Of a DNA stretch of 64,000 bases, positions 1 to 61,133 are shown piece by piece. Source of the stretch: Alphaproteobacteria bacterium UBA6376 (GTDB taxonomy: Bacteria; Pseudomonadota; Alphaproteobacteria; Rs-D84); the NCBI GenBank assembly GCA_002437665.1, contig DJQW01000001.1, positions 392,727 through 456,726 of the forward strand, given 5' to 3'. Position 1 is the stretch's first letter; every line of letters starts with the position of its first letter. Under the pieces are notes generated by a model. It had not been told where the DNA came from. It worked only from the letters and a program-made list of their open reading frames with translations, and ran no database searches. Position numbers and translations under genes: made by a program.

Positions 1-1314
1 CAATACCAGATCTAATTTCAAATGTGCCATGGTATAACTGGACATCATGATTTCAAACCCGTGCATACGTGGCAACAAATCGTTTTCAACGTAATTCGGC
101 CAAATGCCAGCATTATTCTTGAACTTATCATAAATATAGTTCACTGCGGTTGCTAAAAATGTTCCTGTGCCGGTTGCAGGGTCAAGTAATTGAACACGAT
201 GGTACTCTTTGTCTTCTGCTTTTGCGTGTCCTTGTAAATGGACTTTTTTTATGATTTTTGACTTGTCCGCCAATCCATTTGGTAATTCAAAATCCGTTTT
301 CAATATGTCGTCCATCGCACGGACTATGTAATCAACAACCGGTTGTGGGGTATAATAAACACCACGCATTTTACGCAACGTCTTGTCATATTTGCTTAAA
401 AACGTTTCATAGAAATGAACTATAGGATCGGCTGTCTTGGTTTTACGTCCAAAATCTTTCAAAATATCTGCAACATCAGTATAACTAAAAATGCTTGCCA
501 AACTGTCAACAGACCACACAATACGCTCATCAATATCATTTCCAGCAATATAATCAAACATTTTACGCAAAAACGGCACCGTCTTAGGTATCAGGGTGGC
601 GGCTTCCTGGCGGGTGAAATCATGCATAGTTTTGTCGTGCAAACGTGCAACAAACATACCGTACGCAATCGTTTGTGCATAAATGTCTGCAAATTCTTGT
701 TCTGTCATTGTGCGAATAAGAATCTTTCGGAATGATTCCAGCTGTTCATATAATGATTGGTTTTCTGATTGATCCTTTAATGCGCCTTTTATCACGTCTG
801 CAATCAAACGTGCTTTACCGGCCATCAATTCGGCCAATTTCAATGGTGATTTTATAGTTGCGGTTTTGATGACATAAAAATCTTTTATCAAATCAACCAA
901 TGTTTGATACCGTTCTGGTAACGGTGTAATTGTTTTGCCATCAAATTCAGCTATGCGCACTCTGGCGGTTTCTTTGCCTTCTTGATAAAATCTGAATTCC
1001 AAATAATCTGTATATATCAAATTTGGCAATGCATCCAAATAACGACTTTTTTGTTCTATCTCCCTGTCTGACAAATTATCTAACCGATTAATTCCGATAT
1101 CTTTTGCCTCTATAAAACCCAACACCGCATCACTGCGTCGGACCATAAAATCAGGCGCGCCAAACGTTCCACGCGCCGGTTCATTTATTGCGACTATCCC
1201 CGTTTCAATAGATTCAAGCAATCGTTTCAGGGCGGGACGATAAGAATGTTCTTTTGCGACCCCTGTTTTGAATTCTTTATCTATATCAACCAAATATTCA
1301 CAAGCACCATACAT
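1..1314 (-). CDS. Type IIG restriction-modification enzyme, N-terminal part only (PD-(D/E)xK endonuclease + gamma-class N6-adenine methyltransferase); C-terminus lies beyond window start
   Basis: Minus-strand ORF starting at ATG 1312-1314 (AAGGA RBS 8 nt upstream) and running off the window. Translation shows GAPDFMV...GFIEAKD (PD-(D/E)xK nuclease), then YYTPQPVVDYIV and LLDPATGTGTFL (MTase motifs X/I). Not in the ORF track because there is no stop inside the window. Confidence 0.6.
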   Translation of the reverse strand, partial: MYGACEYLVDIDKEFKTGVAKEHSYRPALKRLLESIETGIVAINEPARGTFGAPDFMVRRSDAVLGFIEAKDIGINRLDNLSDREIEQKSRYLDALPNLIYTDYLEFRFYQEGKETARVRIAEFDGKTITPLPERYQTLVDLIKDFYVIKTATIKSPLKLAELMAGKARLIADVIKGALKDQSENQSLYEQLESFRKILIRTMTEQEFADIYAQTIAYGMFVARLHDKTMHDFTRQEAATLIPKTVPFLRKMFDYIAGNDIDERIVWSVDSLASIFSYTDVADILKDFGRKTKTADPIVHFYETFLSKYDKTLRKMRGVYYTPQPVVDYIVRAMDDILKTDFELPNGLADKSKIIKKVHLQGHAKAEDKEYHRVQLLDPATGTGTFLATAVNYIYDKFKNNAGIWPNYVENDLLPRMHGFEIMMSSYTMAHLKLDLVL

Positions 1315-1348
1315 GAGCCAATCCTTGATGGCCCAATCTGTTTTCTTT

Positions 1349-1371
1349 ATACAGGCAATCTAAGGACCATC
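1349..1371. repeat. Left 23-bp inverted repeat (atacaggcaatctaaggaccatc) of putative invertible promoter segment
   Basis: Perfect 23/23 reverse-complement match to 1453-1475; read directly from the sequence. Confidence 0.85.
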
Positions 1372-1400
1372 TTTTTGCCATAACCATCATTTACATGCTG

Positions 1401-1429
1401 ATTCTACCAGATTTTAACCCGTTTTGCAA
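1401..1429 (-). promoter_or_regulatory. Sigma70-like promoter TTGCAA-N17-TAGAAT inside the invertible segment, currently facing the Type IIG gene
   Basis: Minus-strand -35 TTGCAA (1424-1429), 17-nt spacer, -10 TAGAAT (1401-1406). An AAGGA RBS and the ATG of the methyltransferase gene follow about 90 nt downstream. Confidence 0.55.
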
Positions 1430-1452
1430 TAAAGGCATACTCTGGACATTCT

Positions 1453-1475
1453 GATGGTCCTTAGATTGCCTGTAT
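1453..1475. repeat. Right 23-bp inverted repeat; overlaps last 5 codons plus stop of the recombinase gene
   Basis: Reverse complement is identical to 1349-1371. Confidence 0.85.
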
Positions 1476-2054
1476 GTATCGTCCCAATGTTCTCGGACTA
1501 ACATTTAGTGCCATTGCCACGCGTCTTTTTGATATCCCCATTGCCAACATTTGTTTTGCTAATTTACTCTTGCCGTCCATTTTATGATGCTTGTTTTTGC
1601 TTCCCGTCTGTCGTCCAAGTTGCATGCCCGCCAGTTTTCTACGTTGCAATGCTTCTTTGGTCCTTTGCGCAATCATGTCACGTTCTATCTCTGCGGCCAT
1701 ACCGAATGCAAAGGCCAGTACCTTACTTTGAATTGATTCATTCAAGGTATACCCATCCTTTACACTGTAAACCTGCACTCCACGCTTTAATAGAAATTCT
1801 AATATGCGAAACAGCATGAACAGGCGTCGCCCGAAACGTGACAATTCAGAAATGATTACGATGTCCCCAGGGTGGATATTTTGCATCAAAATACCAAGCG
1901 CACGCTTTTCTGGTTCACGCGTGCCGGATATGCCAGAATCTTCTATATATTTATCTATCCGCAACCCAAGCGCCCCCGCCTTGGATTCAATACCCAGTTT
2001 TTGATTCGCACAATCTTGTTTATCCGTTGAAACCCGTATATAGCCATATATCAC
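1461..2054 (-). CDS. Serine recombinase (resolvase/invertase family, Hin/Gin/Tn3-resolvase-like)
   Basis: 197 aa; N-terminal YIRVSTDKQ catalytic-serine motif, resolvase core, C-terminal HTH (ISKRRVAMALNVSPRTLGRYI). Confidence 0.85.
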   Translation of the reverse strand: MIYGYIRVSTDKQDCANQKLGIESKAGALGLRIDKYIEDSGISGTREPEKRALGILMQNIHPGDIVIISELSRFGRRLFMLFRILEFLLKRGVQVYSVKDGYTLNESIQSKVLAFAFGMAAEIERDMIAQRTKEALQRRKLAGMQLGRQTGSKNKHHKMDGKSKLAKQMLAMGISKRRVAMALNVSPRTLGRYIQAI

Positions 2055-2220
2055 AATAAACTCCTTTGGTTCGTTGTTCTATATGTCGTAGATTTCAGTT
2101 TATTCAAGTAAATAAAGATGGTTTAAGAGTGTTCAGTAACAATACTTTTTTTATCCATCGGCACTTGAAAATAGTGGACTTTTTACCTAGTTAATATAAA
2201 ACATACAAGGATTTAGAAAC

Positions 2221-3684
2221 ATGAAAACAGTTTTAGATTTAAATGCAGAAAAGGCAAAAAATTTTTTTCTGGCAGGGGAAAATTATTTTACGGGGGATTT
2301 GCCTCCATATTTTAAGTTTAATGATGTTTTACAAAAGGCAACTGCGATTTTGCAAAACAATGAGTTTAAGCAAATATATCACAGAAAACCCAATGATGTT
2401 CCAGACATCAATTATGATATAATAATCAATAAAAATGGGGAATACGATTGGCGTAAATTGACGATAATAAACCCCATATTGTATGTAAACCTTGTAAATT
2501 GTATATGCAATGCCGATGCATGGGAAAAAATATGTAATAGGTTTAAAGAATTTAGATCAGACAATCGTATTGTGTGTTCAAGTATACCGGTTGTAAAAGG
2601 TATGCGTAGACATCAAAGAGCGCAACAGATTTCAAATTGGTTGACAGAATTTGAACAAGATTCTGTGAAACAATCGTTAATTTTCTCTCATATGGTATGT
2701 ACGGATATAGTAAATTGTTATTCATCTATATATACTCATTCTATAGCTTGGGCGCTACATGGAGAAGACGTAGCAAAAAACAATAAAACAGATATGTCTT
2801 TCTTAGGAAATATTATAGATGTCGGTATAAGAGACCTTTCATATAATCAAACTAATGGGATTCCACAAGGTTCGGTATTGATGGATTTTATTGCAGAAAT
2901 TATATTAGGCTATATAGATACCTTAATAGCAGAAAAATTAAAGCGAGAGAACATAAAAGATTACAAAATATTAAGATATAGAGATGATTATAGAATATTT
3001 ACAAATAATCCAAAAGACAGTGAAATAATATTAAAAACTATAAATGATGTTTGTCAGCATATAGGTCTAAGATTAAACACACAAAAAACATTCGCCACAG
3101 ATAAAGTTATTTCAAAAGCGATAAAAAAAGATCGGTTTGATATACCCATAAGTTTCGTGCAACCAAATTATAAAATATTTTTACAATTGTATAAAATGTC
3201 TGAAGAACAGCAGAATTCAGGAGCATTACAAAGTACGTTATCGGCATTAAATAAAAAAATAAAGATAACAAAAAAAGATAAATCAGAACTATTGATAAGT
3301 ATAATTACAGACATCGCATATAATGTCCCAAAAGTTATACCACAAGCATTTACAACTATTAGCCATATTTTAAGAAAAGAACCCAGAGAAATGCAGTTGG
3401 AATACATTACAAAAATCAAGAACAAGTTCTCTAGAAAAGCCTATACAAGTTTTGTTCATATATGGTTGCAAAGATTGAGTATAAATATTGATTATCAGAT
3501 TGAATACGAACCAGATATTTGCAAGTTTGTTAAAGATAAATCTATCGAATTGTGGAATTTTAGTTGGTTAAAAAAAGAATTTTTAGACCAATTAAAACCA
3601 TATGACATAGTAAATGCATATTTGCTTAGACGTGCAAAATTACCAATTGAAAGCAAAGAAACGAATATTTTTGAATACAATTAG
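2221..3684 (+). CDS. Stand-alone reverse transcriptase of the Abi/UG (defence-associated) class, with a C-terminal alpha-helical extension
   Basis: 487 aa. RT motifs: A (MVCTDIVNCYSSI), B' (NGIPQGSVLMDFIAEIIL), C (ILRYRDDYRIF, YxDD), D (IGLRLNTQKT). No endonuclease, maturase or integrase domain is evident. Confidence 0.7.
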   Translation: MKTVLDLNAEKAKNFFLAGENYFTGDLPPYFKFNDVLQKATAILQNNEFKQIYHRKPNDVPDINYDIIINKNGEYDWRKLTIINPILYVNLVNCICNADAWEKICNRFKEFRSDNRIVCSSIPVVKGMRRHQRAQQISNWLTEFEQDSVKQSLIFSHMVCTDIVNCYSSIYTHSIAWALHGEDVAKNNKTDMSFLGNIIDVGIRDLSYNQTNGIPQGSVLMDFIAEIILGYIDTLIAEKLKRENIKDYKILRYRDDYRIFTNNPKDSEIILKTINDVCQHIGLRLNTQKTFATDKVISKAIKKDRFDIPISFVQPNYKIFLQLYKMSEEQQNSGALQSTLSALNKKIKITKKDKSELLISIITDIAYNVPKVIPQAFTTISHILRKEPREMQLEYITKIKNKFSRKAYTSFVHIWLQRLSINIDYQIEYEPDICKFVKDKSIELWNFSWLKKEFLDQLKPYDIVNAYLLRRAKLPIESKETNIFEYN

Positions 3685-4138
3685 GTTTATTTTTACTCTA
3701 TTTAGGAATATTTTGTTTGGTCGCCCACGAACATTATCCCGAACCATTTGCATAAAAAGGCAAAGCGTGCCTGATATGTTGTTGCGCGAACTTGTTTTGC
3801 TTGTTTCAGCTGATAGACAGCATTTCTTTATAAATTGATTAACGACCGATGAAAATTTGGTAAGCCCAGAATGACTATGTTACTTCAATTAAGTGCTATC
3901 CGCACATCCTTCCATCAGGAACTACCCCTGTCTTAATGCCCTGAAACATTTACAGTTAACAAAAACGTCTAATGCAGAAATTGTCAAATGAGATTTACTC
4001 CCGTCAAAAATGTATCATTTTGTTGTTTCAGATACTCTTTATTAACCTTGTACTGCTCTGGAAATTGCTGAAACTCTCTTTTCATTCGCTCTACCCCTGC
4101 CGAGCAAAGATACGCCGGAGTATTGCGCCCCTTTTTGT

Positions 4139-4692
4139 TCAAAGGTGGAATAGACGGATTAAACAGAGCCTCTTGAACATTAACATTGAACAATTCTTAA
4201 CCACATCATTTGTTAGCTGGATAAAGTAAGGAATACGAACCACTTTGTAGCCAAGCTTCATATATAATTTAGTATTTTTTTCATCCCTTAAAATGATATC
4301 AGGGTTTGTGTAATGGTGTATCCCATCAAACTCAACAATTAACTTTAATGTCTCACTTCGATAATCGGGCCGCTTCATGTATTTGTTTCTGCCTACATTT
4401 CCCAATGATTTATCATGAATCCAATCTTGCACATCAGGAAATATGATAGCCAAATACTCTTCAAACCAGTTCTGTGCAACCCGGTGTCTGCATCAAAACC
4501 CGCAACCTGTTTTTCATTAAGTTTTAGATTAAAAGCATAAGACAAAACGCATTCCCCAATATCGCCAAGCATTCTGCCATCAACAGCAAAAGTTTTATGG
4601 ACTTTTTCATGCATGCCCACTGTAGTGGCATGAAGTTTCAGATACTCTCCTAATATAAAATTGGCTTGCTCTTCTGTTACCGTTAAGCTCAT
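4139..4692 (-). pseudogene. DUF559-type (PD-(D/E)xK-like) endonuclease-domain gene, apparently frameshifted
   Basis: ORF 4139-4453 carries LIVEFDGIHHY...KLGYKVVRIPY (DUF559 signature). Overlapping upstream ORF 4393-4692 is in another frame, with a stop just before the DUF559 frame resumes. A third fragment, 3984-4193, may also belong. Confidence 0.35.
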
Positions 4693-4904
4693 TTTATCAC
4701 ATCTTTTTCAAACTACTGTAACACGCCTCCCAGCATCATACAGAGAAAGAAACACCAGCACAAACAAAAACACCAAATTTGTTAAACACACTTTACAAAA
4801 GTGTTATTTTTGACAATTATGAAAAATAAAATAACATAATGGCCGAATTGACTTTCTACCCCGAAATTGCTACCATTATCCGATGATAATAATGGGGCAA
4901 AAAC

Positions 4905-7391
4905 ATGACGTTTGATAAATTACGTGATGACAACGAGGCATATGCTCGTTTAAAAATAAATCAGAAGTTGATTGACGCGGGCTGGTTTTTAACAGATGCC
5001 CATGAACATAAACGCAATGTGAATGTTGAGCAACGGGTTGATTCTGGCTTTGCTGACTATGAAATGTTAGATTCAAACGGCTTTCCTTTGTGTGTTATTG
5101 AAGCCAAAAAACCATCAATCAACCCATTAAGTGCAAAAGAACAAGCACGCAGATATGCAACAGAACACGGTATTCGCTTTGTTATTTTATCAAACGGTGA
5201 AATTTATTATCTGTGGGACATAAAAACGGGTAATCCACAAATCATAACCCAAATACCAACCCAAGAATCTTTGGAAATGCGCTTTGGTTTTGACCCAAGC
5301 ACCAAAGATATAATGAAAGAAAACATTATTCCGGAATATGTTGCATTACAAAAGAATCCGCGCTTGTTGGATGTGCCTGAATATCAAAACCCAAAGACTC
5401 GTGGCGCTTATTGTTGGAATAATGGTTTACGAATATTGCGTGATTATCAGCTTGGTGCCGTTCATGCAGTGCAGCAAGCTATTGCAGATGGTAAAGATAG
5501 ATTCTTGATTGAAATGGCGACTGGATTGGGCAAAACATTGACGGCTGGTGCAATAATTCAAATGTTATTACGCACCGGACACGCGCATAGGGTTTTATTC
5601 CTTGTTGACCGTATTGAATTGGAACAGCAAGCGTGGAAAAACTTTAATGATTATCTGTGTGATTTTGTAACCGTAATTTATAAAGAAAATACAAAAGATT
5701 GGCATAAAGCGGATATTGTTGTTTCAACCATCCAAACATTGATGGCCAGTGATAAATACAAACATTTTTCACCAACTGATTTTGATTTTATCATATCAGA
5801 CGAAGCGCACCGTTCAATAGGTGGTAACAGCCGCGCAGTATTTGAATATTTTATCGGTTACAAATTGGGATTAACTGCGACACCACGTGATTACATCAAA
5901 AATGTGGATATTGATAAAATCAAGGTTAATGACCCAAAAGCACTTGAACGCAGATTGTTATTGGATACATATAAAACATTTGGTTGTGAAAGCGGTGAAC
6001 CAACATACAAATATACAATGATTGACGGTATTAAAAATGGTTATCTGGTTGCCCCAATGGCTATTGATGCGCGCACAGATATAACCACAGAAATGTTATC
6101 CGAAAAAGGTTATCACGCGATTGGTGTTGACGATAATGGCGAGGATGCAGAAGCCGATGTTGTTGTGAAAGATTTTGAAAAACGCTTTTTCAATGACAAT
6201 ATAAACGCGGTATTTTGCAAAGCGTTCTTGGAAAACGCAGAACGCGACCCAATCAGTGGCGAAATTGGTAAAACATTGGTATTTTGCGTTAGTCAATCAC
6301 ACGCTGCAAAGATTACCCAGATGTTGAATGAATTGGCTATGCAGGCATTCCCAGGCAAATATAATAGTGATTTTGCAGTCCAGGTTACCAGCAATGTTCA
6401 AAATGCACAGCAAATGACAAATCAGTTTATGACGGATAATAATAATCTGGGCGGTAAATCAACATTTTTGGAAGGTTATGATACATCAAAAACGCGTGTA
6501 TGTGTAACCGTTGGAATGATGACGACTGGTTATGATTGCAGCGATTTATTAAACATCGTATTTATGCGTCCGGTATTTTCACCAACTGATTTTGTGCAAA
6601 TGAAGGGGCGCGGAACCCGTAAATATACATTCAAGTATGTTGACGCAGATAAGAATGAAACCAGAAAAGACAAAGAAAGATTCAAGATGTTTGACTTCTT
6701 TGGCAACTGCGAATATTTTGAAGAAAAGTTTGATTACGGTCAGCAATTAAAATTACCTGCATTAACAAAAGGCGCTTTGGCAGGGCCAGGACAACAACGC
6801 ACATTTACAACCTTAACATCCGAAGAGATAACGAAACTGATTCAAATGGAAACGCTTAATATCCCAGACAACGGAATGCGTATAGACCGCGAATTCTGGG
6901 GCAATTTCCAAAAGACAATCAGTGCTGATACAGATATTAAAAATGCGGTTGAAAACAGCGATTGGGATTATGCTGTATCATTGGTTAAAGACAGATACGA
7001 AAATAAACCTGAATTATATCCTAATCTGGAACGGATTAAAAAAGCGACAAAATTGGACCGCCGTTTGTCCTGGCGCGAAATATTGGAACATATATTCGGC
7101 TTGCTGCCCCGATTTAAGACACGCGATGAAATGTTAGAAGATGAATGCGATAAATACATATCTATTGTTAAACCTGACGCTGAAATTGTGCCGTCTGTTA
7201 AAAATTTCATAAAATTGTATGTCACAGACAACACATTTCGTGATATAATAGAAAAGCAGGAGTATCCGCGCCTTAATGCTGAAATTCCTGGCTTTAGTAT
7301 GCAGGATTTGAAAATGATGGGCAAAGACATCCGCGAAAATTTACCTGAATACATCAAAGAAAACATAGTATTGAATAAATATATGGGGTAA
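4905..7391 (+). CDS. hsdR: Type I restriction enzyme R subunit (HsdR)
   Basis: 828 aa. N-terminal nuclease motif (DSGFADY...IEAKKP), SF2 helicase motifs MATGLGKT, DEAH, LTATP, QMKGRGTR. Confidence 0.8.
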   Translation: MTFDKLRDDNEAYARLKINQKLIDAGWFLTDAHEHKRNVNVEQRVDSGFADYEMLDSNGFPLCVIEAKKPSINPLSAKEQARRYATEHGIRFVILSNGEIYYLWDIKTGNPQIITQIPTQESLEMRFGFDPSTKDIMKENIIPEYVALQKNPRLLDVPEYQNPKTRGAYCWNNGLRILRDYQLGAVHAVQQAIADGKDRFLIEMATGLGKTLTAGAIIQMLLRTGHAHRVLFLVDRIELEQQAWKNFNDYLCDFVTVIYKENTKDWHKADIVVSTIQTLMASDKYKHFSPTDFDFIISDEAHRSIGGNSRAVFEYFIGYKLGLTATPRDYIKNVDIDKIKVNDPKALERRLLLDTYKTFGCESGEPTYKYTMIDGIKNGYLVAPMAIDARTDITTEMLSEKGYHAIGVDDNGEDAEADVVVKDFEKRFFNDNINAVFCKAFLENAERDPISGEIGKTLVFCVSQSHAAKITQMLNELAMQAFPGKYNSDFAVQVTSNVQNAQQMTNQFMTDNNNLGGKSTFLEGYDTSKTRVCVTVGMMTTGYDCSDLLNIVFMRPVFSPTDFVQMKGRGTRKYTFKYVDADKNETRKDKERFKMFDFFGNCEYFEEKFDYGQQLKLPALTKGALAGPGQQRTFTTLTSEEITKLIQMETLNIPDNGMRIDREFWGNFQKTISADTDIKNAVENSDWDYAVSLVKDRYENKPELYPNLERIKKATKLDRRLSWREILEHIFGLLPRFKTRDEMLEDECDKYISIVKPDAEIVPSVKNFIKLYVTDNTFRDIIEKQEYPRLNAEIPGFSMQDLKMMGKDIRENLPEYIKENIVLNKYMG

Positions 7392-7395
7392 CGGT

Positions 7396-9288
7396 ATGTT
7401 AGACGCCAGAACAAAACAAACCATTGATAATGCCTGCGATACATTGGTGGGTAAAGTGCCAAGTCCACAGACACAGGTTGATATTATTACAACCGCGCTA
7501 ATTTATAAGTTTATGGACGATATGGATTTGGACGGCCTTGAATTGTCGGGCAAGCGTACATTTTTTGCCGGCGATTTAGAAGCATACGCGTTTTCAACCG
7601 TTGTTAATACCAAGGGTAATCAAGAACGGATGAACCTGTATTTGACAGGGCTTGAAAAGGTGCAGACCGCCAAATCGGTGCCTGAATTATTTCGCCGTAT
7701 TTTCAAAGAAGCACTTATTCCATTTCGCGATCCTACAACATTTGCATTGTTTCTAAAAGAAATCAACGAATTATCATACGATGATTCCGAGACAATAGGT
7801 GATGCTTTTGAATACCTTTTGAATAAAATGGCGACTGCAAAAAATGCGGGGCAGTTCAGAACGCCACGTAATATTATTGATTTCATCGTTGATGTTGTGA
7901 ATCCTACTAAAAATGATACTATTTTAGATCCTGCCTGCGGAACGGCCGGATTCTTGATTTCTGCATACAAGCACATTACACAAAATCGTAAATTGACACC
8001 AGATGAATTAAAACAGATTACGAATAATGTTGTTGGAATGGATATTGATCCAACTATGGTGAAATTAAGTCTGGCCAATCTGTATTTGCATAAATTTGAA
8101 CAACCAAATATTTATGAATATGATACTTTGTCGAATGATACACGTTGGGGTGACCGATATGATGTTATTTTAGCAAACCCACCATTCATGACCCCAAAGG
8201 GCGGAATTACACCGCATAAGCGATTTGCCATAAACGCCAACCGCAGTGAAGTTTTGTTCGTCGATTATTTTATGGAGCATTTGACAATAAACGGGCGTGC
8301 TGGCTTTGTTGTCCCAGAGGGTATTATATTCCAAACCGCAAACGCATATAAAGATTTGCGTAAAATGATGTTGGATGGTTATTTATACGCGGTTGTATCT
8401 TTACCATCTGGCGTATTCAATCCGTATGCTGGGGTAAAAACATCAATACTATTCTTTGACCGCGCGTTTGCAAAACAAAACAACAATATATTATTTGTGC
8501 GTGTTGATAATGACGGCTTTTCTTTGGGCGCACAACGCACACCGATCAAACAGAACGATTTACCAGAAACGTTAAAGATTATCAATGAATACCGCGATGG
8601 TAAAGATGTATCAGGTTATGAACGCGCAATGGTTGTGTCCAAAGAACGCATAGCAGAACAAAATTATGACCTAACCGCTGCAAAGTATGTTGAGAAAGAA
8701 ATTGTTCAATGTAATTATGGAATGGTTAGATTGGGTGATGTTTGTGAATTGTTAAATGGATATGCATTCAAAAGCGAATTGTATACGGATACTGGTATTC
8801 GTGTGATGCGTATAACAAATGTGCAGAAAGGCGAAATTGTTGATGATAACCCAAAATTTTATCCGATAGAAAAACAATCCGAAATACAAAATTACATGTT
8901 ACATGAAAATGACTTGCTTGTATCTTTAACGGGTAATGTTGGGCGTGTTGGTTTGTTGCCAAAGAATTTATTACCTGCAGGATTAAATCAACGGGTTGCA
9001 TGTTTAAGACCGGATACAGATAAAATTTTGAAGGGATATTTGTTTGCTATATTAAATCAGGATAAATTTGAAAAAGATTGTATTGAATCGTCTGGCGGAA
9101 TTGCGCAAAAGAATTTAAGCACAGTATGGTTACAAAATTACACAATCCCACTTCCGTCATTGGATGTGCAACAACAGATTGTGGATGAAATTGAAAATAA
9201 GCAATCAGCAATCAACCACGCACGCAAAATCATTGAAAATCTAGAGAGAGAGAGAGAGAATATTTTGCCTGCCTTCTTGACAGTATAG
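7396..9288 (+). CDS. hsdM: Type I methyltransferase HsdM fused in frame to an HsdS half (target-recognition domain 1 + conserved coiled-coil)
   Basis: 630 aa. N6-MTase motifs (DPACGTAGFL, NPPF). Typical HsdM C-terminus (SKERIAEQNYDLTAAKYV) runs directly into an HsdS-like TRD (VRLGDVCELLNGYAFKS...). Ends just after an (AG)8 tract. Confidence 0.8.
   Translation: MLDARTKQTIDNACDTLVGKVPSPQTQVDIITTALIYKFMDDMDLDGLELSGKRTFFAGDLEAYAFSTVVNTKGNQERMNLYLTGLEKVQTAKSVPELFRRIFKEALIPFRDPTTFALFLKEINELSYDDSETIGDAFEYLLNKMATAKNAGQFRTPRNIIDFIVDVVNPTKNDTILDPACGTAGFLISAYKHITQNRKLTPDELKQITNNVVGMDIDPTMVKLSLANLYLHKFEQPNIYEYDTLSNDTRWGDRYDVILANPPFMTPKGGITPHKRFAINANRSEVLFVDYFMEHLTINGRAGFVVPEGIIFQTANAYKDLRKMMLDGYLYAVVSLPSGVFNPYAGVKTSILFFDRAFAKQNNNILFVRVDNDGFSLGAQRTPIKQNDLPETLKIINEYRDGKDVSGYERAMVVSKERIAEQNYDLTAAKYVEKEIVQCNYGMVRLGDVCELLNGYAFKSELYTDTGIRVMRITNVQKGEIVDDNPKFYPIEKQSEIQNYMLHENDLLVSLTGNVGRVGLLPKNLLPAGLNQRVACLRPDTDKILKGYLFAILNQDKFEKDCIESSGGIAQKNLSTVWLQNYTIPLPSLDVQQQIVDEIENKQSAINHARKIIENLERERENILPAFLTV
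9243..9259. repeat. (AG)8 dinucleotide simple-sequence repeat at the hsdM-S/hsdS' junction
   Basis: agagagagagagagaga read directly. It lies about 30 nt before the stop of the HsdM-S ORF (ends 9288). The downstream half-S frame is open through the tract. Confidence 0.8.
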
Positions 9289-9305
9289 ATTACAACGAAG
9301 TAAAA

Positions 9306-9800
9306 TTGGGCGATGTTGTAAAGGTTGATTGGGGAAATACCAATTTAACAAAAGCCGCATATGAAGAAAATGGCAAATATCTTGGTGTCAGTGCTGCAGG
9401 TTGTGACGGGCGTATGTCAAATTTTGAACACGATGTGGGAGTTAGTGTTTTATCTGCGATAGGTGCAAACTGTGGAAGGGTTTTTTATCCGGATGAAAAA
9501 TTTACGGCGATTAAAAATACTATAACTTTCACACCGAATAGAACAGTTGTTGTGCCAAAATATTTATTTTTTGTTATGCGGAACAATCAATTACCACAGC
9601 GTGGCGGAGCACAACCATTTATGGCGAAAGCGGATGTTGAATCATATATTATACCACTTCCATCCATTGACGACCAGAAGCGTATAGTTGCAAAATTGGA
9701 AGCAGAACAGGAAATCATTGATACAAATAAACGCTTGATTGATTTGATGCAAGAAAAAATCAACCAAGTTATAAAACGTATATATAGGTGCAATATGTAA
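9306..9800 (+). CDS. hsdS: HsdS half-subunit (target-recognition domain 2 + second conserved coiled-coil)
   Basis: 164 aa, TTG start. TRD followed by LPSIDDQKRIVAKLEAEQEIID...; its frame is open upstream through the (AG)8 tract. Confidence 0.65.
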   Translation: MGDVVKVDWGNTNLTKAAYEENGKYLGVSAAGCDGRMSNFEHDVGVSVLSAIGANCGRVFYPDEKFTAIKNTITFTPNRTVVVPKYLFFVMRNNQLPQRGGAQPFMAKADVESYIIPLPSIDDQKRIVAKLEAEQEIIDTNKRLIDLMQEKINQVIKRIYRCNM

Positions 9801-9802
9801 TT

Positions 9803-10492
9803 ATGACTGAATATTCTGATGATAATCCAGTTTATGTATTAGCGGATTTTTTGCCGCCACTTGATGAAACTGTTGCTTATCTATATAAATACAAAGATGA
9901 TTTTGCATATCATTATGAACGAGAATTTTATAATCTTGCGTTATTCTCGTATCACCAATTGTATATGGCAATATTGCATATGTATTTGTTAAAGTTCCAC
10001 AGGATGGATATAAAAATCGCTAGTGCCTGCAGGCAGAATCGTCCAATTATAAGTGTTTTATCTCCTTCTTTTTATTCTGATGTTATGGATGAAAAAGCTC
10101 GCATTGGGTTGTTTGGTCGTAGAATTTCAACCGAAATTAAAAAGAAACATGTAGAATTAGTTCAACAAAGGGATAGAATTGCGCATTTTACTGGGAATGT
10201 GTTAACCAAAGAACAAATTGACGAACATATATCAATATCGGCGGTTGTGTTAAAAGAAATTCAATCTGTTGCTTTTTATGAATTACTTTTGCATCCAACA
10301 GACCGTTTCGGGGTTCAAGTAAACGATATAGTGACAGAAATAGACAAGTCGGAAAGGTTTTCAAAAATTTCATATCTGATTCAGGACTTCTATTTATCTA
10401 AAAATGATATAGATTTTTTACAGAGATATCCTGATTTTTGTTTTTGGAATGAATATATACAGGAAAATGGTTATGAGCCAATTGAAAATTAA
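9803..10492 (+). CDS. Hypothetical protein with HEPN-like Rx4H motif (Abi-like candidate)
   Basis: About 229 aa, directly after hsdS'; RDRIAHF motif; no other recognisable domain. Confidence 0.35.
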   Translation: MTEYSDDNPVYVLADFLPPLDETVAYLYKYKDDFAYHYEREFYNLALFSYHQLYMAILHMYLLKFHRMDIKIASACRQNRPIISVLSPSFYSDVMDEKARIGLFGRRISTEIKKKHVELVQQRDRIAHFTGNVLTKEQIDEHISISAVVLKEIQSVAFYELLLHPTDRFGVQVNDIVTEIDKSERFSKISYLIQDFYLSKNDIDFLQRYPDFCFWNEYIQENGYEPIEN

Positions 10493-10613
10493 TGCCTGTA
10501 TTTATATTAAGGAACACAAGATTTAAATTTTTCTATCAAAATTTAGGAATAAAATACAAGATAATACCACATATTTCAACCACGGGTTGAAACAAGCGGC
10601 GAATTTCCGATAT

Positions 10614-11402
10614 CTACGCAACCGCATTCTCAAATCGGTCTACGATTTCAAGTAATGTGTCTGGTACATATTTTCGGGCGGTCGCCTGTATGTCGGCTGG
10701 CACGCCATAGTACGCACCGGCAACTGCGCCCGTAATGGCGGCAATCGTGTCACTGTCGCCACCGATTGAAATTGCATTGCGTATTGCGTCTTCAAAATCG
10801 GTGGATTCTATAAAGCACTGCAACGCCTGCGGGACTGTGCCTTGGCACGAGGCATCCCAACGATAACTTTTTTGCAATTCAGAAACCGGTAAGCACGCCC
10901 CATAGTAGTTTTTGATTATGTGCCGACCTATCTCGGCTTTGTCACGGCCGGTGCGTGCCAGAAATACGGCAACGGCGGTTGCCTCGGCCCCTTTGATGGC
11001 CTCGATGTGGTCATGACTGACCGATGTTACCATGTACGACAGGCGTTTAACCTCTGATAAACTGCGGCCAACCCAGCCAGCCGCCGACACGCGCATTGCG
11101 GCACCGTTGCCCCAACTGTCGTACGGTTCGCTGTCATAGCTATCCAGCCAACGTGCAAATCTGAATCCATAGCTCTTGTCCGGGAACTGTCGGCCAATCG
11201 TGCGCATAGACCGGCGCGCCAAATCCGACAGATCGCCACCATCACGCCGCCATTTCAACAGCGCATCCGCCACCGCGATGGTCATACAAGTGTCATCTGT
11301 GATAAATCCACACGGTGAAAATAATGGAAAATCCTTGGTTCTGATATTATCAAATTCATAAATAGATCCGACAATATCACCAACTATCGCACCCCACAGC
11401 AT
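10614..11402 (-). CDS. ADP-ribosylglycohydrolase family protein (DraG/ARH-like)
   Basis: 262 aa; GAIVGDIVGS, GNGAAMRVSAAG, GGDSDTIAAITGAVAGAYYG motifs. Confidence 0.8.
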   Translation of the reverse strand: MLWGAIVGDIVGSIYEFDNIRTKDFPLFSPCGFITDDTCMTIAVADALLKWRRDGGDLSDLARRSMRTIGRQFPDKSYGFRFARWLDSYDSEPYDSWGNGAAMRVSAAGWVGRSLSEVKRLSYMVTSVSHDHIEAIKGAEATAVAVFLARTGRDKAEIGRHIIKNYYGACLPVSELQKSYRWDASCQGTVPQALQCFIESTDFEDAIRNAISIGGDSDTIAAITGAVAGAYYGVPADIQATARKYVPDTLLEIVDRFENAVA

Positions 11403-11414
11403 ATTGCGCCCCCT

Positions 11415-11936
11415 TTATAACGTGCTTAAAAAATTCTCTAACTCTTTAATCTTTTGTTTTTTCCAACCGCGATTGCTTTTTTGAAACTGGGTGTAAGTGC
11501 GCAACTCTGTGACCTTGCGCAACCATGGGGCGGGGTAATAGCCGAACACCGGTACATTTCGCGCCATGCATTGACGCAATATGGCGATGTTTTCATCACG
11601 TGCGTCACGCGCGCCCTTGGGCCACGTCGCCTCTGGCGGAATACCGCGCGATGATGCCGTGTGATACGGATAGTATTCCAGAAACAGAACCTCTGAATTT
11701 TTTACACCATGTTCACGGAACGCAGCGCAAAAATCGTCCCACCAATCGTTGTATTCCTGCAAACTGTCCAAAGGCATACCGGTTGGGGCATAGCAGCCGT
11801 CTGAGCGCATTGCGTACTCTGGCAATCGTTTTGGCCACTGCGGATTGCCACCCGGATTCCATAACAATATGACAAGACGTGGATTTCTGTCGTTACCCAA
11901 ACGCACCACCGGCAAATCGTATAAATCTCTACTCAT
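11415..11936 (-). CDS. Hypothetical protein, co-oriented 12 bp upstream partner of the ADP-ribosylglycohydrolase
   Basis: 173 aa ORF (W/Y/P-rich, YYPYHTASSRG); no domain recognised. Confidence 0.4.
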   Translation of the reverse strand: MSRDLYDLPVVRLGNDRNPRLVILLWNPGGNPQWPKRLPEYAMRSDGCYAPTGMPLDSLQEYNDWWDDFCAAFREHGVKNSEVLFLEYYPYHTASSRGIPPEATWPKGARDARDENIAILRQCMARNVPVFGYYPAPWLRKVTELRTYTQFQKSNRGWKKQKIKELENFLSTL

Positions 11937-12054
11937 ATTGTATTCCCTCCACAGTCAGACCCAAAAAAATGATGTGAAATATTTATATAAAAATTCTGCA
12001 AGAACCAGACGACAAAATCAATAAAAAACACCCCGCACGGGGTATTTTTATTAC

Positions 12055-12144
12055 TGGCGGATGGGGAGGGATTCGAACCCCCGGAAGAGTTGCCCCTTCA
12101 GCGGTTTTCAAGACCGTCGCATTCGACCGCTCTGCCACCCATCC
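12055..12144 (-). tRNA. tRNA-Ser (anticodon UGA), long variable arm
   Basis: Reverse complement GGATGGGTGGCAGAGCGG...CUUGAAAACCG...GGTTCGAATCCCTCCCCATCCGCCA folds as a class II tRNA. A terminator hairpin (12029-12050) follows the 3' end. Confidence 0.85.
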
Positions 12145-42585: not shown

Positions 42586-42679
42586 TGTCCGGGCCCCGCA
42601 AAATTGATAAATTTTGTGGGTGGCGTCCATCGGAATCCAGGTTATGGTGTCGCGCCGAATGGCGCATTCCTATTGTCAT

Positions 42680-42830
42680 TCCTGCGCAGGCAGGAATAGG
42701 GTCTTTGAAATTACCGATATTCGTTTGTGTACAATCTACGAAAAAATATAAAAACCGCAACGTTTTGTATTTGGCTCACTGCGTTCGCACTGCTTAGTCC
42801 CTATTCCTGCCTGCGCAGGAATGACAAGTT
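42680..42830. repeat. Inverted pair of family-2 hairpin repeats flanking about 100 bp
   Basis: ttgtcattcctgcgcaggcaggaataggg (42677-42707) and its reverse complement at 42800-42830. Confidence 0.7.
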
Positions 42831-42942: not shown

Positions 42943-43019
42943 TGGCGGGATTGAAGGGGCTCGAACCCTCGACCTTCTGCGTGACAGGCAGACGCTCTAA
43001 CCAGCTGAGCTACAACCCC
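42943..43019 (-). tRNA. tRNA-Asp (anticodon GUC)
   Basis: GGGGTTGTAGCTCAGCTGGTTAGAGCGTCTGCCTGTCACGCAGAAGGTCGAGGGTTCGAGCCCCTTCAATCCCGCCA; terminator hairpin after the 3' end. Confidence 0.85.
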
Positions 43020-52084: not shown

Positions 52085-52166
52085 CACTGGATTGCTTCGT
52101 TACACTCGCAATGACAGAGATTCTAGAACTTTTGTCATTGCGAACGTAGTGAAGCAATCCAGTCAG
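52085..52166. repeat. MITE-like self-complementary element, family 1 (actggattgc...gcaatccagt)
   Basis: About 82 bp hairpin: cactggattgcttcgttacactcgcaatgacagag / ttgtcattgcgaacgtagtgaagcaatccagt. Confidence 0.75.
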
Positions 52167-52184
52167 TAGAGCCGCGCCAACGGC

Positions 52185-52206
52185 GCACATATGTGTCGCC
52201 TGCGGG
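52185..52206. repeat. 22-bp inverted repeat (gcacatatgtgtcgcctgcggg) left of the GT92 gene
   Basis: Reverse complement identical to 53303-53324. Confidence 0.8.
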
Positions 52207-52251
52207 TGCACATATACTTTTCCCTTGAATATTTTCCTGTAATTCTGAAAA

Positions 52252-53214
52252 ATGTGGGCAAAAGGGGTAATTATGTCCGATTTTATCATCAGCAATGCAC
52301 AGAAAAAGTGGACTAAAATCGCAACGTTCCTGATTCCGTCCAAGGTTTATCGCAAGAAACTGCGTGGCATCTTGACCATGGGTGTTGGCAATTATATTCG
52401 CGCGGTGCGTGGTGAACGCAACGCAAAATTCGCGCACGAATTGGCGGTCTTGGCCGTTATGAAGGACGAGGGCGCATACCTGAAAGAATGGTTGGATTTC
52501 CATATCTTGGCGGGCGTTGAAAAATTTTATCTGTATGACAATGAATCAACCGACAACACGACCGAAATTTTGAAACCATACATTGAACGCGGAATTGTGG
52601 AATACAAATACTGGCCCGGTCGCGCCCAACAGAATCCCGTGTATTGGGACGGCCTGAACCGGCACAAGAATGATGCGCGTTGGATTGCGGTGATTGACTT
52701 GGACGAATTTGTCGTGCCGGTGCAAAACAAAACGATAACAGAGTTCTTGCACACGTTGCCACGTGGTGCACGCGAATTGGTTATGACGTGGGTTATGTAC
52801 GGTTCATCGGGCCATGTTCACAAACCAGATGGTTTGGTCATCGAAAACTTTCGCTGTCATGCCGACCGTACGCGTCCGGCGGGTTGCAAATCGATTGTGA
52901 ATCCGCGTTTTATCACGCGCTGGGCAAATCCGCATATCAACGAAGTCGCCGGATTTATCGTTGATGAAAATGGCAAGAAACTGGGCCGCATTGACCAGAC
53001 GAACAACCCACCAACGTATAACAAGATTCGTTGCAATCACTATGTGACGAAATCTTTTGATGAATATATGTCGCGTGGCACGCGTATGGCGGTGTCGGGT
53101 CGTATTGCGCCGCATCGCACACCCGAACGTTTTCGCATGAATGATATGAACGATATTTGCGACCCAATAATGGACGAATGGGCCGCCCGCGTCAAAGCAT
53201 TCAAATTGAAATAA
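52252..53214 (+). CDS. Glycosyltransferase family 92 (DUF23-like)
   Basis: 320 aa; EKFYLYDNESTDNT and downstream DxD-like region typical of GT92. Confidence 0.65.
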   Translation: MWAKGVIMSDFIISNAQKKWTKIATFLIPSKVYRKKLRGILTMGVGNYIRAVRGERNAKFAHELAVLAVMKDEGAYLKEWLDFHILAGVEKFYLYDNESTDNTTEILKPYIERGIVEYKYWPGRAQQNPVYWDGLNRHKNDARWIAVIDLDEFVVPVQNKTITEFLHTLPRGARELVMTWVMYGSSGHVHKPDGLVIENFRCHADRTRPAGCKSIVNPRFITRWANPHINEVAGFIVDENGKKLGRIDQTNNPPTYNKIRCNHYVTKSFDEYMSRGTRMAVSGRIAPHRTPERFRMNDMNDICDPIMDEWAARVKAFKLK

Positions 53215-53237
53215 CGCCACACGCGTGGAAAAATAAA

Positions 53238-53481
53238 CTGGATTGCCGCGCTACGCTCGCAATGACAAGGGTGCTAGAAGTGCAAGGAAAATAGATATAA
53301 CAAGGGCGGCAGCCCGCAGGCGACACATATGTGCTGCGCAACATTATCAACTGGATTGCCGCGCTCCGTTCGCAATGACAAGGGGGGCTAGCAGTTGGTA
53401 AAAACGGATTGTTTTTTTATAACAGGCATTCTGGCTCTTTTGTCATTGCGAGCGAGCGTAGCGACGCGTGGCAATCCAGTA
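53238..53481. repeat. Cluster of family-1 repeat halves (two direct copies 53238-53283 and 53351-53396, one inverted copy 53436-53481) plus right 22-bp IR 53303-53324
   Basis: actggattgccgcgctacgctcgcaatgacaagggtgctagaag; actggattgccgcgctccgttcgcaatgacaaggggggctagcag; ttgtcattgcgagcgagcgtagcgacgcgtggcaatccagt. Confidence 0.75.
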
Positions 53482-60773: not shown

Positions 60774-61133
60774 ATGGCATTCACATTCTTGAAACCAGCG
60801 GCAAAGAAAGTTGCTGCGAAACCAGCAGCAAAAAAAGTTGCTGTTAAAAAACCAGCGGCGAAAAAGCCAGCTGCAAAACCAGCAGCGAAAAAAGTTGTTG
60901 CTAAAAAACCTGTTGCCAAGAAAGTAGCAGCGAAACCAGCAGCAAAGAAAGTTGCAGTTAAAAAAGTTGCTGCAAAACCAGCGGCAAAAAAAGTAGTTGC
61001 TAAAAAACCAGCAGCGAAAAAACCAGTTGCAAAGAAAGTCGCAGTAAAAAAGCCGGTTGCTAAAAAAGCCCCAGCGAAAAAAGTTGCTGTGAAAAAGCCA
61101 GTTGCCAAGAAAGCACCTGCAAAGAAAAAATAA
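60774..61133 (+). CDS. Lysine/alanine-rich histone H1-like repeat protein (AKKPAAKK)n
   Basis: 119 aa composed almost entirely of (V/P)AAKKPAAKK repeats; the DNA is a tandem repeat. A good RBS (AAAGGAGAGAAGA) precedes the ATG. Confidence 0.6.

Follow-up and report, generated by a model that had tools for sequence, protein, structure and literature searches.

A probable promoter inverton between a serine recombinase gene and a Type IIG restriction-modification gene, found in both orientations in an uncultured gut alphaproteobacterium

Introduction

Promoter invertons driven by serine recombinases, such as Hin and Mpi, or by tyrosine recombinases, such as FimB/E and RecV, are classical (PMC11868660), and they include the Mpi-controlled promoter invertons of Bacteroides fragilis (Coyne et al., 2003, PNAS 100:10446, as cited in PMC11868660). 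Here, we describe a probable case from a 64,000-nucleotide stretch of DNA (hereafter referred to as the window) of Alphaproteobacteria bacterium UBA6376 (assembly GCA_002437665.1, contig DJQW01000001.1). At positions 1349–1475 of the window, two inverted repeats enclose an 81-bp segment between a serine recombinase gene and a Type IIG restriction-modification gene. The inversion of this segment is real: both of its orientations are present in public assemblies of the same gut bacterium. We consider it likely, at a probability of roughly 0.78, that 1349–1475 is a promoter inverton, in which the adjacent recombinase most likely flips the 81-bp core and the orientation of the promoter sets the Type IIG gene ON or OFF.

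For Type IIG enzymes, the routes of variation described so far are repeat slippage and the shuffling of specificity domains. The phase-variable Cj0031 of Campylobacter jejuni varies by slippage (Anjum et al., 2016, as cited in PMC13064476), and in a Type IIG enzyme of B. fragilis, segments of the recognition domain are inverted (PMC13064476). Likewise, hsdS invertons and shufflons of type I systems shuffle the specificity genes (PMC7672463, PMC7641763). In the literature that we searched, neither a Type IIG enzyme under the control of a promoter inverton nor such a recombinase-switch family in gut Alphaproteobacteria is described.

The 81-bp segment and its inverted repeats

The locus comprises the following features, given in window coordinates:

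1–1314, minus strand: 5' part (438 codons) of the Type IIG restriction-modification gene, whose open reading frame (ORF) continues past the left end of the window
1326–1322, minus strand: ribosome-binding site of the Type IIG gene (AAGGA), conserved in the related locus L044
1349–1371: left inverted-repeat arm (23 nt, ATACAGGCAATCTAAGGACCATC), on the Type IIG side and distal to the recombinase
1372–1452: 81-bp invertible segment, in the window oriented with the promoter toward the Type IIG gene (ON)
1401–1429, minus strand: promoter-like element, with −35 hexamer TTGCAA (1429–1424), 17-nt spacer and −10 hexamer TAGAAT (1406–1401)
1453–1475: right inverted-repeat arm, on the recombinase side, overlapping recombinase codons I-Q-A-I and the stop codon
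1461–2054, minus strand: serine recombinase gene (197 aa), with GTG start and AAGGAG ribosome-binding site

An inverton is recognized by two inverted repeats around a short non-coding segment, by a site-specific recombinase encoded nearby and by the occurrence of both orientations in natural populations of one organism. At this locus, arms of 23 nt each, with 100% complementarity, are separated by 81 nt, the recombinase gene lies alongside at 1461–2054, and both orientations occur between assemblies. The last four codons of the recombinase gene and its stop codon TAA (1463–1461) fall inside the right arm, and the left arm repeats this end of the gene, stop codon included, together with another 8 bases of it. 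Within the 64-kb window, neither the 23-bp arm nor its 18-bp core has a further copy, even at up to 3 mismatches; shuffled sequences (n = 100) gave 0 matches to the 23-mer and at most one to the 18-mer.

On the other side of the segment, the ATG of the Type IIG gene lies at 1314–1312. PADLOC identifies the ORF as REase_MTase_IIG (2.1e-132), and it contains a PD-x13-EAK nuclease motif, a DPATGTGTF methyltransferase motif and an N6_Mtase match. The full-length protein, which is visible in the loci L096–L101, has 1054 or 1056 aa with Eco57I and Type_ISP_C domains; it thus combines, as Type IIG enzymes do, an N-terminal PD-(D/E)xK nuclease, a gamma-class N6-adenine methyltransferase and a C-terminal recognition region in a single polypeptide. 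This gene is the presumed target of the switch. An earlier note on this DNA, made from the sequence alone, had described perfect 23-bp inverted repeats around 81 bp, the overlap of the right repeat with the last codons of the recombinase gene, and a Type IIG gene with ribosome-binding site and ATG downstream; the coordinates and the complementarity, the four codons with TAA inside the arm, and the AAGGA, ATG and PADLOC match bear this out.

Both orientations of the same cassette

For the comparison of orientations, we used contigs that encode a 100%-identical recombinase, retrieved with 10-kb flanks. These represent seven distinct places, plus ERZ27300194 (L042). Retrieval with 4-kb flanks had given ON copies only, since similar places were collapsed, and the 10-kb flanks revealed the OFF copies:

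Window orientation (ON): the window's own assembly; L096 (GCA_002452175.1, contig DKEE01000001.1); L099/L041 (SRR5326219); L100 (SRR5325891); L042 (ERZ27300194)
Exact reverse complement of 1372–1452 (OFF): L097 (ERZ26859178); L098 (ERZ26858478); L101 (SRR29834442)
Contig end at the repeat: L043/L102 (ERZ26858443, coverage 23), which stops at the inner edge of the recombinase-side arm (window 1453)

Five independent assemblies, the window's included, are therefore in the ON and three in the OFF orientation. The lack of an alternative orientation, which the earlier note had named as a finding that would speak against a switch, is not what we observe, as three assemblies carry the exact reverse complement. 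In every locus with the identical recombinase, both 23-bp arms are exact and their spacing is unchanged, and the assemblies compared all have an intact recombinase ORF of identical sequence. Aligned over 9 kb upstream and 5.3 kb downstream, the flanks differ otherwise only by one single-nucleotide polymorphism (SNP), by the length of an (AG)n tract in a type I restriction gene and by the number of GGCCAG copies (3 or 4) in the Type IIG gene. Given this near-zero divergence, the inversion must be as recent as the slippage of simple repeats. Furthermore, all four combinations of orientation and GGCCAG copy number occur, so that repeated change must have taken place at one of these two sites or at both. 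The contig break at 1453 indicates mixing within a sample, as this is where an assembly graph would branch if one sample held both orientations.

With the 630-aa type I protein of the window as a query, used to see whether its allele also occurs with the OFF orientation, two places were returned, both ON; a megablast search of window 1–2220 against Escherichia coli genomes and PLSDB plasmids gave no match, and the exact or degenerate repeat pattern had 0 matches in JGI metagenome contigs and IMG/VR.

The recombinase

The recombinase has a PF00239 domain (3e-32), with the catalytic-serine N-terminus YIRVSTDKQ, and a weak C-terminal helix-turn-helix match (HTH_7, 18.9 bits). Among NCBIfam models, the best is that of the Mpi family (NF009949, 231.8 bits, E = 5.8e-69), which aligns over the full length, and recombinase relatives of 64% identity bear the NCBI name 'master DNA invertase Mpi family'. 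The earlier note had called the protein a Hin/Gin-like serine recombinase. Its assignment to the serine recombinases holds, but the specific likeness to Hin and Gin does not: among solved structures, Gin (4m6f, E = 7.9e-13) matches no better than Tn3 resolvase (E = 2.9e-13), and Gin and the Tn3 and gamma-delta resolvases are all similarly weak matches (E about 1e-12 to 1e-13), with no preference for the invertases. We thus find no close kinship to Hin or Gin as distinct from the resolvases, and 'Hin/Gin-like' is valid at the superfamily level only. The protein is the presumed invertase of the 81-bp segment.

Inverting segments beside related recombinases

To relatives of this recombinase belong loci in gut metagenome-assembled genomes labelled Candidatus Enterousia, Alphaproteobacteria or 'Rickettsiales'. 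Among loci whose recombinase is 60–84% identical to that of the window, four further subfamilies have a homologous segment in both orientations:

L003 and L006: 223/230 identical once inverted; segment of 89–95 bp; core GGA / TCC
L019 and L023: 280/280 identical once inverted; segment of 102–114 bp; core ACGGAC / GTCCGT
L008 and L015: 216/230 identical once inverted; segment of 63–83 bp; imperfect tie region of about 10 bp, with arm ends TGACCATC / GATGGTCA
L009 and L048: opposite orientation, 95% identical over the 82-bp segment; about 82 bp; core TGAC

In all four pairs, the inverted stretch starts directly after the recombinase stop codon, and a further contig (L007) ends exactly at the shared core. 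A look for the same cassette beside the recombinase in related genomes had been suggested in the earlier note. An exact-seed search for inverted repeats downstream of recombinase homologs had found almost nothing, as if the architecture were not conserved; we rejected this view, since direct comparison of the loci shows inversion around cores of 3–9 bp.

In the relatives, too, the switch adjoins the recombinase gene, and the downstream gene lies on the recombinase's strand and starts about 70–200 bp past the recombinase stop codon. Most of these downstream genes encode DNA methyltransferase or restriction functions (N6_N4_Mtase followed by a type III res gene, EcoRI_methylase, Eco57I and ResIII), and a minority encode unannotated proteins, possibly surface proteins, or a glycosyltransferase.

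In the subfamily linked to type III genes, the recombinase ORF crosses the crossover point (L006 58–660 compared with L003 6001–6618): the recombinase of L006 ends in KMDI* and that of L003 has a different tail, so that the last few residues vary with orientation. In the window, the stop codon comes before the predicted crossover.

The promoter-like element

The segment contains the minus-strand element TTGCAA-N17-TAGAAT, facing the Type IIG gene with its ribosome-binding site and ATG, as had been pointed out before. It resembles sigma-70 promoters at 9/12 consensus positions and additionally has the TG of an extended −10 at 1409–1408, two bases upstream of TAGAAT. We scanned 1100–2400, and this was the single site found there. 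In the ON orientation, transcription is predicted to start near 1394. The candidate draws its support from conservation rather than from its match to the consensus. L044 keeps TTGCAA-17-TAAAAT although its 81 bp differ at several other positions, and a TTGnnn-17/18-TAnnnT element is found within the invertible segment of most subfamilies, where the −35/spacer/−10 layout is kept even though the segments are otherwise dissimilar. In the closer relatives, the putative element ends about 10–20 bp before the inner half-site of the recombination site. Among relatives with a clear element, 19 are assembled with it pointing into the recombinase gene (OFF) and 8 with it pointing toward the downstream gene.

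Predicted recombination sites and mechanism

Two candidate recombination sites overlap the repeats:

1354–1379, plus strand: predicted distal 26-bp site, GGCAATCTAAGG-AC-CATCTTTTTGCC, of 12-2-12 form with GGCAA/TTGCC ends
1445–1470, minus strand: predicted proximal 26-bp site, GGCAATCTAAGG-AC-CATCAGAATGTC

Natural inversion pairs among the relatives confine the exchange to cores of 3–6 bp (GGA, ACGGAC and TGAC), and the GA within (G/T)GAC is the sole dinucleotide common to every partner pair. Because of these shared cores, we predict the crossover of the window within the GAC directly after the recombinase stop codon (1365–1367 and 1459–1457). A hix-like 12-2-12 notation is possible for the sites, as GGCGGAAAAATG-GA-CATTTAATTGCC in L006 and as listed above in the window, with the position of cleavage being a prediction; in the window, the half-site register is offset by one base from the invariant GA. 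As the stop codon falls in the outer half-site, which would not take part in the inversion, the recombinase protein would be the same in both states.

In the mechanism that we propose, the recombinase would bind the two hix-like sites, which share the 23-bp repeat, and synapse them; staggered cuts within the two GAC trinucleotides and strand exchange would then flip the 81-bp core. In the ON state, a transcript from near 1394 would cross the left repeat and run on to the Type IIG ribosome-binding site and ATG. In the OFF state, the promoter would instead drive rightward transcription on the plus strand from about 1430, in antisense to the recombinase gene, leaving only read-through transcription for the Type IIG gene. 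Of the ON/OFF inversion switch that had been proposed in the earlier note, the inversion is thus seen directly in assemblies; that it most likely turns the Type IIG enzyme on and off is suggested by the anatomy of the locus and its conservation.

Alternative explanations

Several observations weigh against a switch of this kind. Mixing within a sample rests on one contig break, and 15 further contigs carry the recombinase without its orientation being visible in them. The OFF orientation occurs with the 2-bp-shorter (AG)n allele in 3/3 cases (L097, L098 and L101) and the ON orientation with the longer one in 4/4 (the window, L096, L099 and L100), and given this perfect co-segregation, one past inversion in one lineage would fit the between-sample data. 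At the 9/12 threshold, shuffled sequence gives 3.9 sites per 1.3 kb where 1 was found, so that the hexamer match by itself is within chance expectation, and the words 'near-consensus' and 'strong', formerly applied to this promoter, were an overstatement. The recombinase scores below the NF009949 equivalog cut-off of 272 bits, and is for this reason not classed as an Mpi equivalog, Mpi being its nearest named family; moreover, the adjacent gene is the presumed source of the invertase, and another enzyme could flip the segment. Finally, a terminator scan found no terminator between the recombinase and Type IIG genes, and the OFF state may therefore be leaky.

The co-segregation with the (AG)n alleles is also what one would expect from the main rival explanation, in which the inversion is a rare or historical rearrangement that marks a lineage, having flipped once and left each lineage effectively locked. 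The window-type and L044-type lineages, which are 11% diverged and both ON, agree with it as well. We nevertheless judge it unlikely: flanks that differ by at most 1 SNP over 14 kb point to a very recent event, the break of one contig falls exactly on the repeat's inner edge, as expected of a mixed population, and the recombinase ORF and the repeats have stayed intact, identical and perfect, respectively. In addition, four other subfamilies are independently found in both orientations, with another contig breaking at the core. It is still less probable that the segment inverts with an output other than Type IIG transcription, be it the recombinase level, set by antisense transcription, or a structure in the 5' leader or read-through RNA, with the hexamers being incidental. 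The chance-level hexamer match and the 19 to 8 excess of relatives assembled with the element toward the recombinase gene would fit such a view. So would the read-through RNA, in which the two arms are predicted to fold into a 23-bp stem (−54 kcal/mol, z = −7.1). However, the layout of the element is kept in dissimilar segments at a constant distance to the inner half-site, a same-strand gene, usually for a methyltransferase or restriction enzyme, always lies within about 70–200 bp, and a majority of OFF copies is the expectation for costly restriction genes. We considered the repeat as an intrinsic terminator and rejected this, because no T-run follows the stem; a search of window 1–12000 against Rfam returned no family.

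All evidence for both orientations comes from assemblies, and inverted repeats longer than an assembler's k-mer permit either traversal of the graph, which could in principle produce inverted copies as an artefact. This is highly improbable here. The repeat is only 23 bp long, and we infer k-mers above 23 from contig names (k119 and k141) and from typical SPAdes and Logan settings; if so, the junctions are spanned by k-mers from real reads, and contig orientation is fixed by reads rather than by graph ambiguity. The identical OFF sequence comes from two different pipelines and at least two projects, and the relatives' shared cores of 3–6 bp cannot cause graph ambiguity, yet both orientations occur. 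We attach as little weight to the idea that the repeats belong to a mobile element, as its res sites or its transposon ends, with the recombinase acting as a resolvase. The protein does match the Tn3 and gamma-delta resolvases as well as Gin, and recombinase, switch and Type IIG gene form a unit found in two genomic contexts (see below), but there is no transposase nearby, the sites are inverted rather than direct, the natural product is repeatedly the inversion of a short segment, and the best family match is a DNA invertase family. A promoter inverton flipped by the adjacent recombinase thus remains the reading that we prefer.

The switch as part of a module

A related locus, L044, encodes a 96% identical recombinase, is 88.9% identical in DNA and is in the ON orientation, but its genomic context differs, as it adjoins an arginyl-tRNA synthetase gene. 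The similarity extends from 2 bp before the recombinase start codon to about 16 bp past the Type IIG stop codon, so that a unit of 3.9 kb, made up of recombinase, switch and Type IIG gene, is found in either context. Upstream of the closest other Type IIG homologs (87% and 76% identical), there is neither a recombinase gene nor a switch. Given the L044 module in its other context and these homologs without a switch, the switch appears to be an accessory that moves together with its presumed target gene. A search with the full Type IIG protein for a contig of ERZ26858443 that starts at the other repeat did not return the exact protein.

A central stretch of about 1 kb in the Type IIG gene is unrelated between L044 (6328–7194) and L096 (12329–13369), and elsewhere the modules are 88% identical. 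The swapped part is probably the target recognition domain. The gene also holds an in-frame (GGCCAG)n tract, which encodes (Ala-Arg)n and lies to the left of the window, at about aa 821 of the protein (L096 13203–13226), in a variable region that is probably involved in target recognition. There are 4 copies in L096, L099, L041, L097 and L101 and 3 in L100, L042 and L098, corresponding to Type IIG proteins of 1056 and 1054 aa, and the copy number is independent of switch orientation.

A wider scenario is possible, which we regard as doubtful. In it, the recombinase and its 81-bp promoter segment would be a portable, self-contained cassette that, in gut Alphaproteobacteria, has several times become joined to methyltransferase and restriction genes unrelated to one another (Type IIG, type III mod-res, EcoRI-like and Eco57I-like); in this island, its state may also be coordinated with a type I (AG)n frameshift switch, such that a truncated type I specificity subunit would go with the ON state of the Type IIG gene and a full-length subunit with its OFF state. 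The two genomic contexts, the switchless closest Type IIG homologs and the related cassettes before different methyltransferase families bear on the portability of the cassette. The association between orientation and (AG)n allele (3/3 and 4/4) could equally be due to shared ancestry.

The surrounding defence island and other repeats

Next to the recombinase gene lies an AbiP2-type defence reverse transcriptase gene (2221–3684, plus strand; PADLOC 2e-169), followed by a type I restriction system (4905–9800). Beside AbiP2, at 4139–4692 on the minus strand, two short overlapping ORFs with DUF559 and DUF6998 matches resemble pieces of one disrupted gene. The G+C content is 30–41% over the first ~10 kb, compared with 43–51% further on, and this first part looks like a defence island.

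In the type I system, an (AG)8.5 tract (9243–9259) lies inside the ORF at 7396–9288, which is followed by an ORF at 9306–9800, and separates the two recognition-domain halves of a fused hsdM-hsdS gene. The window and L100 have (AG)9, L096, L099 and L102 have (AG)8AC, and L097, L098 and L101 are 2 bp shorter; the shorter allele joins the two ORFs, giving a protein of 800 aa instead of proteins of 630 and 164 aa. The tract resembles a phase-variation switch of the simple-repeat kind that would act on type I specificity.

The contigs of four samples (L099, L100, L101 and L102) all begin at window ~10657–10682, within the 3' end of an ADP-ribosylglycohydrolase ORF (10614–11402); a tRNA-Ser gene lies at 12055–12144. 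This common start coincides with the change in G+C content and is probably the edge of a strain-variable island that would comprise the type I system, AbiP2, the recombinase switch and the Type IIG gene.

The window contains further repeats. A perfect 29-bp inverted repeat, TTGTCATTCCTGCGCAGGCAGGAATAGGG, with arms at 42673–42701 and 42799–42827 and 97 bp between them, lies beside tRNA-Asp (42943–43019), and several inverted-repeat pairs of 13–22 bp with TTGTCATTGCGA-like ends lie at 52132–53454. Both may be small repeat elements, apparently unrelated to the switch. At 60792–61127, there are long imperfect tandem repeats of an AAACCAGCAGC-type unit, with periods of 15–114, which would encode a Lys/Pro/Ala-rich repeat protein.

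Implications and comparison with known systems

The mechanism class is textbook, the family of switches is apparently undescribed and the conceptual advance is modest. The locus adds a sequence-verified case in which a promoter inversion would switch restriction-modification in an uncultured gut alphaproteobacterium. Clonal populations would then be mixed with respect to restriction and methylation, with consequences for their susceptibility to phages, for the uptake of DNA and for any binning or strain tracking that relies on methylation. For the detection of such systems, it matters that inverton finders that need long inverted repeats would miss the many relatives that invert around identical cores of only 3–6 bp. 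Furthermore, with the inverton, the type I (AG)n tract and the Type IIG (GGCCAG)n tract, the 10-kb defence island has three hypervariable sites and would make a compact natural model for combinatorial defence variation.

Of the systems known, the Mpi-controlled invertons share with this locus a small serine recombinase of about 200 aa, for which NF009949 is the nearest family, and short promoter-only segments, bounded by inverted repeats, that act as ON/OFF switches in a gut bacterium, a role that we propose here. Mpi, however, acts in trans on many distant polysaccharide promoters, whereas the present recombinase has a single switch beside it, with what is presumed to be its only pair of sites, and the site does not recur within the 64 kb. 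The host is a gut alphaproteobacterium and not a member of the Bacteroidota, the presumed target is a restriction-modification enzyme, the stop codon of the recombinase is embedded in the predicted recombination site and the score lies below the family cut-off.

Hin/hix of Salmonella and Gin, Cin and Pin combine, as is proposed here, a serine invertase with a promoter-carrying segment and a downstream ON/OFF effect, and their 12-2-12 sites with a 2-bp crossover resemble those predicted here. The hin gene sits inside its invertible segment of roughly 1 kb, whereas the present recombinase gene is outside the 81-bp segment, and its similarity to Gin is weak (E = 8e-13). In fimS of E. coli, too, a promoter-only element is bounded by short inverted repeats, with recombinase genes alongside, and is ON when the promoter points toward the structural gene. 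FimB and FimE, however, are tyrosine recombinases, and fimS has 314 bp and 9-bp repeats and controls fimbriae; the corresponding features here are a serine recombinase, 81 bp, 23-bp repeats and a presumed restriction-modification target.

With Cj0031 and the Type IIG enzyme of B. fragilis, the locus shares the single-polypeptide Type IIG target; variation within a clone is described for those two. There, the changes are homopolymer slippage in the ORF and inversion in the recognition domain, respectively, whereas here the promoter flips and the coding sequence is untouched, with the in-frame (GGCCAG)3–4 tract as an additional feature of the window-type gene. The hsdS invertons, finally, also diversify restriction-modification in host-associated bacteria by recombinase-driven inversion, but they mostly use tyrosine recombinases and change specificity, whereas the segment described here would be a non-coding ON/OFF switch.

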